Shown piece after piece: positions 2,657 to 57,850 of a stretch of 64,000 nt of DNA. Both the position numbers and the translations under genes were made by a program. The notes under the pieces were generated by a model. The model saw only the letters and a program-made list of their open reading frames with translations, was not told the origin of the DNA and ran no database searches. The DNA comes from Minisyncoccota bacterium (GTDB lineage: Bacteria; Patescibacteriota; Minisyncoccia; Phycocordibacterales; UBA918), in NCBI GenBank assembly GCA_041389025.1, contig JAWKSP010000001.1, positions 256,002 to 320,001 of the forward strand. Reading direction: 5' to 3'. The number at the start of each line of letters is the position of its first letter. The stretch's first letter is position 1.

Positions 2657-2724
2657 AATAACAGAGGTGCGACCTTGAAGAGGAGCGGTAAGCAACGGAA
2701 AAAGGTCGTTCCTCGGTTATTTTC
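2657..2724 (+). repeat. structured repeat element, copy 1 of 4 (hairpin AATAAC-GAGG-CGACC...GGTCG-CCTC-GGTTATTTT)
   Basis: aataacagaggtgcgaccttgaagaggagcggtaagcaacggaaaaaggtcgttcctcggttatttt. Homologous to 9018-9087, 27729-27797 and 57784-57850. Lies 3' of a + strand gene and ends in a T-run. Confidence 0.7.
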
Positions 2725-2794
2725 TATGTAAATTAATTAACATAGGTTCCATATTTCTGTCTGTACATATTATATTTTTTATGGTAAAAAATTC

Positions 2795-3292
2795 TTGGAT
2801 TATTTTTTATGGGATTATTTAATGGATAACTCAATTTTTCCTGTTTTTACATATCTACACAATGATCAGCCGCGAAAAATACAAGGGTCACGTATTGATG
2901 AAAAGTCTATAGTAATTTACAGCACTGACATAATCATAAGTCATGATATTCGTGATAAACGTGCTTTAGTAATATTTGATGGTGATATACCTTGTAATGG
3001 TTTACCTAGAAATGGGGTACAGATAGCTATGCTTGGTGAGCAAGGAATTCCTGTTAAAGGTAATCATTTTCGTTTATCAAAATCGTATGAAATGGAACAT
3101 CCTTTAGCTGAATATTTTGTTACAAATAAGTCTTATTTATTAAAAAGAAGAGTGCTTTTACTACCGGCGGGCAGGCTACAGTTATGCGCATTTATCGTTC
3201 CCAGTGGTTTGGCGGTTTGGTATTGTGTGATTGATGTTTCGTATAAAAATAACAAACCGGTTGTTTTGTTTTTAAGAAATAGCAGTTATTAA
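2795..3292 (+). CDS. hypothetical protein (165 aa)
   Basis: ORF only; no recognisable motifs. Confidence 0.35.
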   Translation: MDYFLWDYLMDNSIFPVFTYLHNDQPRKIQGSRIDEKSIVIYSTDIIISHDIRDKRALVIFDGDIPCNGLPRNGVQIAMLGEQGIPVKGNHFRLSKSYEMEHPLAEYFVTNKSYLLKRRVLLLPAGRLQLCAFIVPSGLAVWYCVIDVSYKNNKPVVLFLRNSSY

Positions 3293-3339
3293 TAACTTAG
3301 TTTAAATATTAGCCAGATATTTAATTAAATATCTGGCTA

Positions 3340-4813
3340 AACATTTATTTACTTACCTTGTGCTCTCTAGCTATCTCTTTATTGTACTCAGCTTCTTCTT
3401 CAGCTTGTTTTTCCTTGCCAGCGTCAATGAAGATTTCGCAATTCCTCTTCAGTATTATAGAGCTTAAAACCTTGGTTTCTAGGTGGTCTTTGGTATTTTT
3501 GGTCGGATCATTTTAGCACTTCCTCTAGTAGGGCATGAGTACATACCCAAGCTTTGCACGGTTTCATTAGTTATTTCCATAATCCTAGTGCCATTCTCTT
3601 CAGCATTTTGACTGAGATTGGATCACGAAGTGCTTCGTCCACCATAGCTTTATATTTGCGGAATCTAAATGGTTGTTTCTTTTGGTCTGCCGGTACCGAT
3701 ACGGTCACAAACACACGTAAGTTAAGGAGATTTTTGAATCTGATCTTCCCCGATTCGGACAATAGTGCGACGTACCGCTGATAAAGTGTAATTTGATTGG
3801 ATCAGAAAAACATGTGTAACCGTTCATTTTTTCGATAATTTGAGCTTCTTCACGTGGATATTTAAGGCGATCAAAGTTTTCTTGATCATTCTCGCCCCTA
3901 CCACTTCGTGTCCAAAGAAAGTATACATTTTGTTCTTACCTCCAGTTCGTCTAGTGGCTGGCTTACCTACATCGTGTAGTAAGGCGGCGATACGCATAGA
4001 AGTAGAATAACCTTTGTCAGCCGCAGCTTGCATGGTGCATAGGAGGTGTTCAAATACATCATAAGCATGAATACCGCCCTGCTCAACCAATTCCCTCTTC
4101 CAGCTCCAGAGATAATATATTCAAGTAGACCAAGTCATACAAGAAAATAATACCTTGCATTGAGTTGTGGAATCAATGATCCTCACAAACTCTGTGTTGA
4201 TTCTTTCCAATAGCGATTTCTTTGAGTAAAGCAGCGTTCTTAGTAACACCAGCAAGGGTCTCGCCTTCTATAGCAAATCAGCTCAGCTGCTAGTCTAACT
4301 GCTCGCATCATGCGGAGAGCATCCTCAGAAAAGCGCTTATCTGGGTCACCAACTGCTTTTAGTCTTTTTACTTTTAAGATCCTCAGAACCACTACATGTA
4401 AATCAACGTTTTTTGGTCTTTTTATGCGGTAAGCGATGGCATTGACGGTAAAGTCTCGTCTAGCCAGTCTTCTTACGAAACACCAAAAGTAACGCTGTCT
4501 GGACGTCTTTTGTCACTATACTCCCCTTCACTACGGTACGGAGTAACTTCTACTACCTGTGAACTACTTTCAGTTTCTTCGTCGTTATTTTTACTCCAAC
4601 GGTACCGTAGTCATTGTTACAAAAACTATCAGGAAAAATAAGCTTGAATTTGCTCGGATGAGCGTTGAGGTATGGTAAAGTCCCAGTCTTGGCTTTTTTA
4701 CCCAAAAGTAGGTCGCGAACACAACCGCCTACTAAATAAGTATCAAAACCAGCTTTTTCCAGCTCGTTTCCAACTCCACGTACAAATAATGGTATATCTT
4801 GAGGATTAATCAT
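3340..4813 (-). pseudogene. cca: CCA-adding enzyme / tRNA nucleotidyltransferase, fragmented by multiple frameshifts
   Basis: Minus-strand fragments sit in different frames. The N-terminal head (4553-4813) carries GGCVRDLLLG. The RRDFTVNAIAY motif is encoded around 4400-4440. Around 4230-4330 lies GDPDKRFSEDALRMMRAVRLAAEL. The HD domain (3824-4090) carries LLHDVGKP...FFGHE. Further C-terminal pieces occupy 3340-3780. No single open frame spans the gene. Confidence 0.7.
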
Positions 4814-4879
4814 GTGGCCATTGTAGCAGAAAATCGTTGCTTTTTCCTATATTTGCCGTATGATGTTAGACACACAACT

Positions 4880-4949
4880 GCACCCGTGGTGAAATGGATA
4901 TCACAACTGACTTCGGATCAGTCGTTCTGGGTTCGAGTCCACGGGTGCA
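4880..4949 (+). tRNA. tRNA-Arg(TCG)-like, atypical shortened T-arm (possible pseudo-tRNA); no CCA encoded
   Basis: Acceptor GCACCCG/CGGGTGC, D-arm GTGA-AATGGATA-TCAC, anticodon arm ACTGA-CTTCGGA-TCAGT (anticodon TCG). The T-arm TGGGTTCGAGTCCA is about 3 nt short of canonical. Total 70 nt, followed by a hairpin terminator at 4955-4990. Confidence 0.5.
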
Positions 4950-5196
4950 CAGAAAGGTTAAAGACCAGCGTTTTGGCTGGTCTTTAACTTCTGTCACACC
5001 CACCAGTCTGGGAACACAAACGATAGTGGAAGAAAAAGCCGTAGCACGACTCGAAGCCCGATTGAGATATTTTGTGAGTGAAACGAAACAAAATATCCAA
5101 TTGGGGTACTGAAACTGTAAGTTTCGAGTCCTGGCGAGAAATTCCTTTTATAACGTAACTTATATTAAGAAAAAAAATTCATGCTACCATAAACCC

Positions 5197-5874
5197 ATGA
5201 ACGAATGGCTTGATCTAAAAACTATTGCGCATTACGCAGAAAAAGCCGTTGATAGAGATTGGGCTTGGTATGAGTACGAGGTCAATTTTCCTGATCTTGT
5301 GAAACTATTGCCGGCCGATGTTGGATCAGTGTTGGATTTTGGTTGTGGAACAGGAGAATTTACTTCACTACTAACTGAAAAAGCAGACAGTGTCACAGGA
5401 ACGGATGTATCACCAATGATAGATGTGGCAAGGGTTAAACATCCAGAGATTAAGTTTGTGGTCTGGGATGGTAATGACTCTGTTCCGAGTGAGTTGGGAG
5501 TATACGATGTTATTTTTGCAAAACTTTCACTTCAGTTTATTGAAGATTTAGAATCAACTGTGAAACGTCTTTATAAAATAACCAAAACTGATGGCTATCT
5601 AATAGTTTCAGTTCCCAATCCAGATAAAATCAGTAAACAGTTTTCTTTTGAGGGAGTTGAAAACAAACGTTATCAAGACGAAATTGGCGATACAGGTATA
5701 AAAATAAATCCTATACACCGATCAGAGGCTGAATATTTTAGAGTATTTAGAAACGCAGGTTTTGATGTGTTTGAAATATCAAAACCAATGATACCTGAAA
5801 AACTTTGCCTTAAATATAACGCTAAAAATGGCGAATACTCTAGTCGTTTGAATTTGAAATTAAGGAAAGTGTAG
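5197..5874 (+). CDS. class I SAM-dependent methyltransferase
   Basis: Motif I VLDFGCGTGEFT with a downstream acidic residue and methyltransferase-fold spacing; 225 aa. Confidence 0.8.
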   Translation: MNEWLDLKTIAHYAEKAVDRDWAWYEYEVNFPDLVKLLPADVGSVLDFGCGTGEFTSLLTEKADSVTGTDVSPMIDVARVKHPEIKFVVWDGNDSVPSELGVYDVIFAKLSLQFIEDLESTVKRLYKITKTDGYLIVSVPNPDKISKQFSFEGVENKRYQDEIGDTGIKINPIHRSEAEYFRVFRNAGFDVFEISKPMIPEKLCLKYNAKNGEYSSRLNLKLRKV

Positions 5875-6093
5875 TAAATCCCCCTCAACTTTGTTGTAGA
5901 ACATATATAGATTTCTAAACTACTGTTCCCTATCTATTTCTCCTCTATGAAACTCCACTTTCTAATCCAAGCACTCACGGTAGGGGTAGGTAAAAAATAG
6001 TATTTTTAGCTAAATTTTAAGCAAAAGACCTTGAAGGTTTTTGTTTTATAAGTGAAACACAATATTAATTGTTATTTATGATAAAATTTACGT

Positions 6094-57147: not shown

Positions 57148-57189
57148 TTTATCCAGCACTAACTTTTAATAAAGTTAGTGCTGGATAAA
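57148..57189 (-). terminator. terminator of the relE/antitoxin operon
   Basis: tttatccagcactaacttttaataaagttagtgctggataaa lies immediately 3' of the toxin stop. Confidence 0.65.
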
Positions 57190-57209
57190 ATACACGCTAC
57201 AAACAAAGG

Positions 57210-57467
57210 TTATTTGTAGATATCGTGGGAACCAATGGCAAGAAAAATGGCAGAGTCCTTGTTTTCGTAAGTGAAAACTATACGAATTTTGTAGTTTACG
57301 GAAAAGCTATGAAGTCCTTGAAGCCTTCCTTTTAGAGAATGGGTTTTGAGAATTGGATTCTTATGATCATCTTGAAAAAGTTTGATTTTTTCTCTTGTTT
57401 CCTGTTTTAAAGCGGGATCAAGTTTTTTAAATAAACGGAGGAATTTTGGACTTAAGGCAACTTCCAT
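57210..57467 (-). CDS. type II toxin, RelE/ParE family
   Basis: 85 aa; ...KKLDPALKQETREKIKLF...LKGRLQGLHSFSVNYKIRIVFTYENKDSAIFLAIGSHDIY, the RelE/ParE fold signature. Confidence 0.75.
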   Translation of the reverse strand: MEVALSPKFLRLFKKLDPALKQETREKIKLFQDDHKNPILKTHSLKGRLQGLHSFSVNYKIRIVFTYENKDSAIFLAIGSHDIYK

Positions 57468-57494
57468 ATGTGTAATATTAGATGAAGTTAAATA

Positions 57495-57707
57495 CTAATC
57501 CTTTAACAGATCATCAATATTACCTCGTAAAATTTTTCCTTCACTTACTTCTTTTTGTGCCTGAAGAACTGCGTTTACTGCTTGTTCTTCCTTATATAGC
57601 TTTATAGCTTGTCGTACGATATCAGAACGAGAAAGCCCAGTTTCTTTAGCGGTCTCTTCGATAAATTCTGTAAGTTCCGGTGATAGAGGAATAGAAAAGG
57701 TAGCCAT
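57495..57707 (-). CDS. type II antitoxin, ribbon-helix-helix (CopG/ParD-like)
   Basis: 70 aa; MATFSIPLSPELTEFIEETAKETGLSRSDIVRQAIKLY is a ribbon-helix-helix. Lies upstream of the toxin. Confidence 0.7.
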   Translation of the reverse strand: MATFSIPLSPELTEFIEETAKETGLSRSDIVRQAIKLYKEEQAVNAVLQAQKEVSEGKILRGNIDDLLKD

Positions 57708-57731
57708 AAAATAAATTTTTATTAAAAATTA

Positions 57732-57761
57732 ATATGAATTTATCATATGATAAATTCATAT
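57732..57761. promoter_or_regulatory. perfect 30-bp palindromic operator upstream of the antitoxin
   Basis: atatgaatttatcat/atgataaattcatat lies 25 bp upstream of the antitoxin start, as expected for an autoregulated toxin-antitoxin promoter. Confidence 0.6.
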
Positions 57762-57783
57762 ATTTTGCAATTTTTAAATGAGA

Positions 57784-57850
57784 AAATAGCGGAAGGGAGA
57801 CCTTAAAGAGGAGTGACTAGCGATGAAAAAGGTCTACCTTTGGTTACTTT
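57784..57850 (+). repeat. structured repeat element, copy 4 of 4 (most divergent; T-run eroded)
   Basis: aaatagcggaagggagaccttaaagaggagtgactagcgatgaaaaaggtctacctttggttacttt. The stem CGACC/GGTCG is replaced by AGACC/GGTCT, a compensatory change. Confidence 0.55.

Follow-up and report, generated by a model that had tools for sequence, protein, structure and literature searches.

A candidate family of small interspersed palindromic repeats shared by two genomes of Patescibacteria

A stretch of 64,000 nucleotides from the genome of a Minisyncoccota bacterium (GenBank assembly GCA_041389025.1, contig JAWKSP010000001.1, positions 256,002 to 320,001; hereafter the window) carries four similar hairpins, all on the + strand. 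On balance, we favour the reading that these hairpins belong to a new family of small palindromic repeats interspersed in the genomes of Patescibacteria (Candidate Phyla Radiation (CPR) bacteria), of the kind represented by MITEs (transposable elements of miniature size with inverted repeats) and SPRITEs, which has spread horizontally and can be used as a terminator. The genomes of Patescibacteria are very small and streamlined, and the literature searched yielded no account of small interspersed repeats in these bacteria. A sequence-only reading of the window had left three options, namely a structured RNA, a protein-binding element of the 3′ untranslated region (3′-UTR) and a miniature mobile element. 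Nested inverted repeats, truncated copies, presence/absence differences among relatives, unrelated neighbouring genes and a patchy spread with near-identical copies in two distant hosts led us to prefer a mobile or horizontally spread repeat over a dedicated conserved RNA, which leaves the first two options less favoured.

A compact repeat with a conserved core

The four look-alike hairpins, first described as elements of about 70 nt, are present on the + strand and exceed chance expectation (Table 1). A pattern for the left arm of the stem matched the window eight times against 0.45 expected, reverse matches of the palindromic pattern being counted, and one for the right arm matched five times against 0.01 expected. 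Aligned over approximately 70 nt, the four copies show a mean column identity of 79%. The original length estimate holds for this conserved core; the full unit, with an outer inverted repeat, is about 130 nt long.

The core of the full unit is 70 bp long and composed of AGAAAATAAC/GTTATTTTCT, GAGG/CCTC and an 8-bp inner stem; it is enclosed by an asymmetric internal loop (5′ side, AAATCAAGnAAAACAA) and, outside this, by a 17-bp inverted repeat (GGCACCTGTGCTAATTA...TAATTAGCACAGGTGCC). The core stem comprises 21–22 bp interrupted by symmetric 1×1 mismatches, has AAAA...TTTT ends and is capped by a purine-rich apical loop of 25 nt (CTTAAAGAGGAGYG..AGCRAY..GAAAGG). The outer repeat is present in copy 1 and at loci L010 and L013 of another genome (see below), and is degenerate in copy 3, L007 and L005; its length lies within the 4–30 bp of MITE terminal repeats. 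The size of the unit and of its core is likewise that of a MITE (shorter than 500 bp, non-coding, in multiple dispersed copies). Reading frames across the copies are interrupted by stop codons and have no coding capacity, and a profile of a spurious frame across the element, used to catch miscalled open reading frames (ORFs), matched none of 5.8 billion proteins. An apparent half-element at 1845–1872 proved to be only a promoter and Shine–Dalgarno region.

Table 1. Positions and surroundings of the repeat copies and of features beside copy 3. Window copies 1–4 are also labelled w1–w4 or c1–c4; L-numbers are loci of other genomes.
Feature	Position	Strand	Gene context	Details
Copy 1, full-length	2618..2750	+	Tandem, sense to upstream gene	Outer arms 2618–2634 (GGCACCTGTGCTAATTA) and 2734–2750; core hairpin 2653–2725
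Copy 2, core only	9014..9086	+	Between convergent genes	16 nt past TrmB stop codon (8997); 47 nt short of the stop of the convergent TrmB paralogue (9134)
Small hairpin, separate	27655–27682			Between NUDIX stop codon and copy 3
Copy 3, full-length but degenerate	~27694–27821	+	Between convergent genes	Core 27725–27797; outer arms ~27694–27708 and ~27805–27821
IS481-like insertion sequence	27843..28753	-		DDE (rve) transposase 27839–28714, 291 aa; outside the element
Copy 4, diverged core	57781..57851	+	Divergent intergenic	A:T inner-stem variant, as in the second genome; outer arms as remnants only
Copy L005a			Tandem, sense to upstream gene	
Copy L005b			Antisense to preceding gene	
Copy L007			Left side beyond contig end	
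Copy L010			Between convergent genes	
Copy L012			Tandem, sense to upstream gene	
Copy L013			Divergent intergenic	

The same repeat in a second, distant genome

Nine copies served to train a covariance model, which scored the four window copies, themselves among the training sequences, at 76–99 bits and the rest of the window at 28 bits or less. These weaker matches were ordinary, unique and perfect hairpins with A-runs and T-runs that look like the normal terminators of this genome. We also scanned a collection of 185,579 species, each represented by one genome and the window's own species not among them, using a pattern in which the outer core stems alone were specified (AATAAYNGAGG...CCTCGGTTATT) and the inner stem and loop were free to vary. 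The scan returned five copies of the repeat in CAYGKU01, a metagenome-assembled genome (MAG) whose record title is Candidatus Saccharibacteria. Although the pattern did not require it, the loop (CTTAAAGAGGAGCG..AGCGACGGGAAAGG) is the same in all five, and their inner stem is the A:T variant of window copy 4. A sixth, degenerate copy in this MAG lay outside the training set and scored 55.6 bits with the covariance model. The outcome that the sequence-only reading had named as a refutation, a covariance search without additional covarying copies, thus did not occur, as copies beyond the original four exist.

Similarity between the two genomes extends over 100–130 nt (BLAST, MAFFT). Identity between them is 81–86% (for example, 84% for copy 2 and L007, and 81% for copy 1 and L007), with up to 84–86% in the core, and the outer part of copy 1 is 77% identical to that of L010. 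Within the genome, identity ranges from 62% to 86%, with 74% for copies 1 and 3 and 62% for copies 3 and 4. As identity between the genomes equals or exceeds that within them, we counted it in favour of a horizontally spread repeat. The GC content is about 36% in the window host versus 41–46% at the CAYGKU01 loci.

No relatives came from the remaining matches and searches. Six scan matches in Eubacteriales/Clostridia, one in Actinomycetaceae and one in Acidimicrobiaceae differ in inner stem and loop and were treated as unrelated; the six from Eubacteriales/Clostridia are mutually alike over their whole length and coding-like. When the whole window was compared with 4227 Rfam models at the gathering threshold, only four tRNAs passed, and E-value scans of two copies against Rfam gave sub-threshold chance matches only. 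A metagenome scan anchored on the loop produced four chance matches in unrelated GC-rich or coding DNA, and four scans of viral contigs gave nothing or chance matches.

Copies are missing at orthologous sites

Copies 1, 2 and 3 represent all testable sites, and for each of them one or more close relatives lack the copy at the orthologous position. The TrmB encoded upstream of copy 2 matches a protein from a Candidatus Paceibacterota MAG at 100% identity and is 98% identical to that of Candidatus Nomurabacteria, including the complete genome CP060227.1; the window accordingly comes from a CPR genome, of the Paceibacterota/Nomurabacteria. A 98% relative (L019) has an identical copy 2 at 10770–10849. 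In four relatives with 84–88% identical TrmB (L029, L031, L032 and L034), copy 2 is missing together with a 2995-bp block (8989–11983) of which it forms the left edge and which also carries the convergent TrmB paralogue; unrelated ordinary terminators follow TrmB there, and homology resumes at window position 11984. Copy 1 sits inside a 1.66-kb island (1678–3343) in place of which L019 has about 200 bp. A small gene comes 58–95 nt after the NUDIX orthologue in L035 and L037; in the window, this gene lies 1.2 kb further on. The additional 1.2 kb contains the small hairpin, copy 3 and the IS481-like element, and both copy 3 and the IS481-like element are missing in these two relatives. Each of these presence/absence differences belongs to an indel larger than the repeat. 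Approximately 126 kb of other Paceibacterota relatives contained no copy that we could find.

A link of the repeat to the insertion sequence (IS) beside copy 3 was rejected. Its 20-nt inverted repeats (27843–27862 and 28734–28753, TCAATACCTTGTGAACACTT) are unlike the arms of the element, which rules out that the repeat is an end of this IS481-like neighbour. The core of copy 3 lies 45 bp from the nearer inverted repeat (27843), as had been pointed out from the sequence, and about 21 bp separate that repeat from the end of the full element. Apart from this unrelated IS481-like element, no recombinase was found among the scanned ORFs of the window, be it an integrase, a Y1 transposase or a further transposase.

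Folding, covariation and conservation

The cores of copies 1–4 fold as + strand RNA with energies of -35, -34.4, -26.2 and -20.2 kcal/mol (z-scores of -7.5, -7.1, -5.2 and -3.1), and in all four a less stable fold was obtained for the minus strand. As a 145-nt nested hairpin, copy 1 reaches -51.7 kcal/mol (z-score -6.7). In 130–145-nt versions, L013 reaches -60.9 kcal/mol (z-score -7.8) as a nested hairpin, and at L010 it is the minus strand that folds better. An alternative pairing of the loop sequence GAGGAGCG with the 3′ arm is possible in copies 1 and 2 and not in the second genome; it was set aside as unconserved.

To quantify covariation, we used an alignment of ten distinct copies from the two genomes with the nested structure. 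Paired cells make up 92% of the core, and five core pairs are changed on both sides. Pairing in register was 79%, compared with 41–50% when partners were slid by one to three columns. Shuffle controls equalled the observed structure values in 7–19 of 500 trials, and maintenance of the hairpin is thus only moderately supported. The argument from compensatory changes made in the sequence-only reading is therefore sound in kind and modest in weight, and paired double changes would be expected of any palindromic repeat. One of the two cases that it cited, the replacement of CGACC/GGTCG by AGACC/GGTCT in copy 4, is a true compensatory change from C:G to A:T. The other, CGATT/TTCG in copy 3, retains the CGA/TCG pairs, but the next two positions are U.U and U.G and were left unpaired by RNAfold.

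The two parts of the structure differ in their mismatches. In the core, G.U cells outnumber A.C cells (17 versus 5), whereas the outer stem has fewer G.U than A.C cells (15 versus 24). Together with the minus-strand fold at L010, this contrast means that there is no consistent RNA-strand signature. The outer stem has none, as expected of a DNA-level inverted repeat.

Conservation is concentrated in the 5′ half of the loop (CTTAAAGAGGAG), which is the most conserved block (0.9–1.0) in both genomes, whereas the mean for the core stems is 0.90 and values of 0.5–0.7 apply to the internal loop, the outer arms and the 3′ half of the apical loop. The conserved loop first noticed in the window is thus found again in a distant genome. 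Its block UUAAAGAGGAG is near-invariant and resembles a Shine–Dalgarno sequence. A requirement of mobilisation could explain this near-invariance, and so could a binding site for a host factor; for this reason we keep a selected function in RNA or single-stranded DNA (ssDNA) as the main rival explanation.

Gene context and terminator-like anatomy

Copies 1–3 are located 3′ of + strand ORFs, in agreement with the sequence-only reading. Copy 4 is not 3′ of a gene and occupies a divergent intergenic region between a toxin–antitoxin operon (minus strand, 57210–57707) and a + strand ORF at 58129. The neighbouring genes of the family are mutually unrelated, including those for TrmB, NUDIX, a toxin–antitoxin pair, a GDSL lipase, MsrAB, a transporter and HtrA, and no gene family is associated with the repeat.

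The terminator-like anatomy ascribed to the copies, an A-run followed by a long hairpin and a T-run, is real. A simple terminator scanner did not call the element because its loop exceeds 8 nt; the hairpin and T-run are nevertheless present. Judging from anatomy and position, the core is likely to have terminator activity. Copy 2, which lies between two convergent genes, takes the place of the ordinary terminator that relatives have at this site, and it would therefore appear to terminate transcription.

Discussion

We propose that copies of the repeat reach intergenic DNA through some mobilising activity, or ride along with inserted blocks of DNA, and that horizontal transfer has carried the family from one CPR lineage to another, distant one. 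Once transcribed, the core with its A-run, long hairpin and T-run could provide the adjacent gene with an intrinsic terminator, possibly a bidirectional one, and with a 3′-end hairpin, as its anatomy and position suggest. The conserved 5′ half of the loop might be a recognition site, whether for a mobilising enzyme or for a host factor, although this is a guess.

The closest described analogue is the SPRITE of Streptococcus pneumoniae, an AT-rich interspersed repeat with AAAA/TTTT ends that occurs at the low copy number of 30 per genome (PMC3049150). SPRITEs have a stem far longer than that of ordinary terminators, followed by a U-rich tract, and lie near the 3′ ends of coding sequences, with enrichment between convergent genes; neither a target-site duplication nor a related IS was found for them, and their authors proposed mobility and co-option as terminators (PMC3049150). 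The element described here resembles them in its AAAA...TTTT ends, in its over-long duplex with a T-run and in its placement near the 3′ ends of coding sequences, often between convergent genes. This likeness is an analogy of anatomy and context, the hosts belonging to different phyla. Unlike SPRITE, the present element has a 25-nt loop with a conserved purine-rich block and an outer 17-bp inverted repeat that yields a nested hairpin of about 130 nt, and it is common to two distant classes.

Bacterial MITEs and other whole-length palindromic repeats, such as Correia/NEMIS, ERIC, RUP and QMITE, are AT-rich intergenic elements of less than 500 bp with terminal inverted repeats of 4–30 bp (PMC10969869). 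Our element is likewise small, AT-rich, intergenic and non-coding, has inverted repeats, would be expected to give stem–loop transcripts and includes truncated copies. It departs from bacterial MITEs in its low copy number, and neither a consistent target-site duplication nor a parent IS with matching inverted repeats was found.

Several observations weigh against a mobile, horizontally spread repeat. No transposase with the element's inverted repeats was found in the window or at the second-genome loci, and the relatives compared yielded no cleanly bounded empty site. Flanking direct repeats are inconsistent, with GACCT/GACCT at L013, none at L010 and an ambiguous TATTT/ATATTT at copy 1. The family is known from ten distinct copies in two genomes, and the assignment of CAYGKU01 to Saccharibacteria is that of the record title only. 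Finally, the very uneven conservation and the excess of G.U over A.C in the core also fit selection on a folded single strand.

Such selection is at the centre of the main rival explanation, a cis-acting structured RNA, in which a 3′-UTR or terminator hairpin would bind a host factor (such as the 30S subunit or an RNA-binding protein) through its Shine–Dalgarno-like loop AAAGAGGAG and thereby control the stability of the mRNA 3′ end or the translation of the neighbouring gene. Its appeal lies in the loop, whose 5′ half is the most conserved part in both genomes, and in a core that shows compensatory changes, has more G.U than A.C cells and folds better on the + strand in all four window copies; in addition, six of the seven copies for which this can be decided are sense to and downstream of a gene. 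We nevertheless consider it unlikely, as orthologous sites do without the element even in relatives at 84–88% identity, the neighbouring genes share nothing, two copies are in divergent promoter regions and one is antisense. The outer stem favours A.C over G.U, L010 folds better on its minus strand, Rfam has no match, and the gene before copy 3 already has a hairpin of its own. A conserved loop on an apparently strand-specific structure would also suit an ssDNA hairpin that is recognised in folded form on one strand by a Y1 (HUH) transposase, either resembling repetitive extragenic palindromes (REPs) and their REP-associated tyrosine transposases (RAYTs) or derived from IS200/IS605. The shared orientation of all copies on a contig and the three Y1_Tnp (PF01797) genes that occur along 20 kb of sequence from the closely related complete genome CP060227.1 could be taken in the same sense. 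REPs and bacterial interspersed mosaic elements (BIMEs) are extragenic palindromes that can act as terminators or mRNA stabilisers and are recognised as hairpins by RAYT (Y1) transposases; REPs are GC-rich and highly abundant, measure 20–40 nt and flank the RAYT gene (PMC2817692). The present hairpin is AT-rich and 70–130 nt long, and the hundreds of copies usual for REPs were not seen. No Y1 gene was found in the window or at the second-genome loci, no copy of the element lies near the Y1 genes at L035 of CP060227.1, and the orientation of copies relative to GC skew, and hence replication direction, is inconsistent between the two genomes. We therefore regard a Y1 substrate as quite improbable.

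Two further alternatives have even less in their favour. Integron attC sites are imperfect palindromes of 57–141 nt at the 3′ ends of genes, with a variable centre and ...AAC/GTT... terminal boxes (R′′/R′, consensus RYYYAAC/GTTRRRY). The core of our element starts with ATAAC and ends with GTTAT, similar to these boxes, copy 2 is exactly at the edge of the inserted 3-kb block, copy 1 is in an island, and L010 shows a hairpin–ORF–hairpin arrangement of about 800 bp, all of which would suit a recombination site resembling attC at which captured blocks of genes end on their 3′ side, as part of an integron or some other type of cassette system. It is very improbable, however, given that AAATAAC/GTTATTT fits the R boxes at only five of seven positions, that mismatches are symmetric (1×1) with no one-sided extrahelical bases, that the loop is conserved, that copies are 6–30 kb apart and form no arrays, and that neither a tyrosine recombinase nor an integrase was found among the scanned window ORFs. 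The least probable alternative is a multicopy gene for a trans-acting small RNA, with a short 5′ leader and the core hairpin as its own terminator. The 5′ part of the element (TAATTAAAATCAAG) has a conserved TAAAAT box some 25 nt ahead of the core, and a T-run ends the core, but no -35 box is conserved, copy 1 has no TAAAAT box, copies 2 and 4 are entirely without the 5′ part, and the distribution is patchy and non-orthologous.

If the copies are indeed horizontally spread repeats, an element present at 81–86% identity in a Paceibacterota genome and in a MAG with the label Saccharibacteria, and missing in closer relatives, would be a compact marker of the horizontal exchange of DNA among CPR lineages, and the family would constitute a ready-made terminator module. 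In practical terms, it can confuse predictions of terminators and small RNAs and break assemblies, and the covariance model can be used for its annotation. A more speculative and rather doubtful extension is that the element is more than selfish DNA and gives CPR genes a 'portable 3′ end' that is exchanged horizontally, either as a terminator whose invariant loop UUAAAGAGGAG is read by a host factor or as a folded ssDNA loop read by a recombinase that stitches incoming gene blocks into the genome. The recombinase version would fit the position of copy 2 at the exact junction of the acquired 3-kb block. If true, the 'portable 3′ end' would be a new gene-capture or 3′-end module in organisms whose mobile elements are considered to be very few. 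The wider significance of the family hinges on a specific binding partner for the conserved loop.

Other features of the loci

Beside copy 4, the toxin–antitoxin operon consists of a RelE/ParE-like toxin gene (57210–57467) and a ribbon–helix–helix (RHH) antitoxin gene (57495–57707) on the minus strand. Upstream of both lies a perfect AT-rich palindrome at approximately 57731–57763 (AATATGAATTTATCATATGATAAATTCATATATT), which is probably the toxin–antitoxin operator. The region from 56000 to 64000 has a GC content of 0.41–0.43, compared with about 0.36 elsewhere in the window, and encodes a MoxR-type AAA ATPase (58807–59877) and a von Willebrand factor A (VWA) protein (60026–61384); it may be an acquired island that starts beside copy 4.

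The window contains at least four paralogues of TrmB-family regulators in 64 kb (8242–8997, 9134–9973, 29746–30561 and 55628–56458). Two of them converge on copy 2, and one of these two is within the lineage-specific 3-kb block. Ordinary terminator candidates, at 1594–1665, 23954–23998, 34859–34904, 38322–38370 and 53103–53168, are long, near-perfect palindromes with A-runs and T-runs that look bidirectional and are each unique in sequence.

Three Y1 transposase genes (PF01797, IS200/IS605-type) lie within 7 kb at L035 of CP060227.1 (2865–3305, 8783–9235 and 9404–9844). Two of the three are 100% identical, and a serine recombinase gene and a Rep-like gene adjoin, which suggests that this region is an integrated mobile element. 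A link between these transposases and the repeat was rejected, as the two are not co-located and the window has no such gene.

At L005 (778–819), copy L005a has a degenerate 5′ outer arm that covers approximately the final 40 nt of the upstream GDSL-lipase ORF; the repeat there thus either contributes sequence to the end of this ORF or was inserted at that end. L007 carries a lone duplicate of the 5′ arm at 7399–7411. CAYGKU01 also contains a second hairpin family (L001 42–112, L007 7438–7507 and L010 5673–5743), which has only the stem base AAGAAAATAACSGAGG/CCTCGGTTATTTTCT (AAGAAAATAACSGAGG ... CCTYGGTTATTTTCT) in common with the element and a different, GC-rich and perfectly palindromic interior (GCCCAGCCCTCGCAYGCGAGGGCTGGGC). 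One copy of this second family shows compensatory changes from GAGG to AAAG and from CCTC to CTTT. Finally, short non-syntenic matches of 90–100% identity connect window positions 13113–13185 with L035 (7929–8000) and 5068–5095 with L019 (14707–14734), and may represent another small repeat or an RNA fragment.

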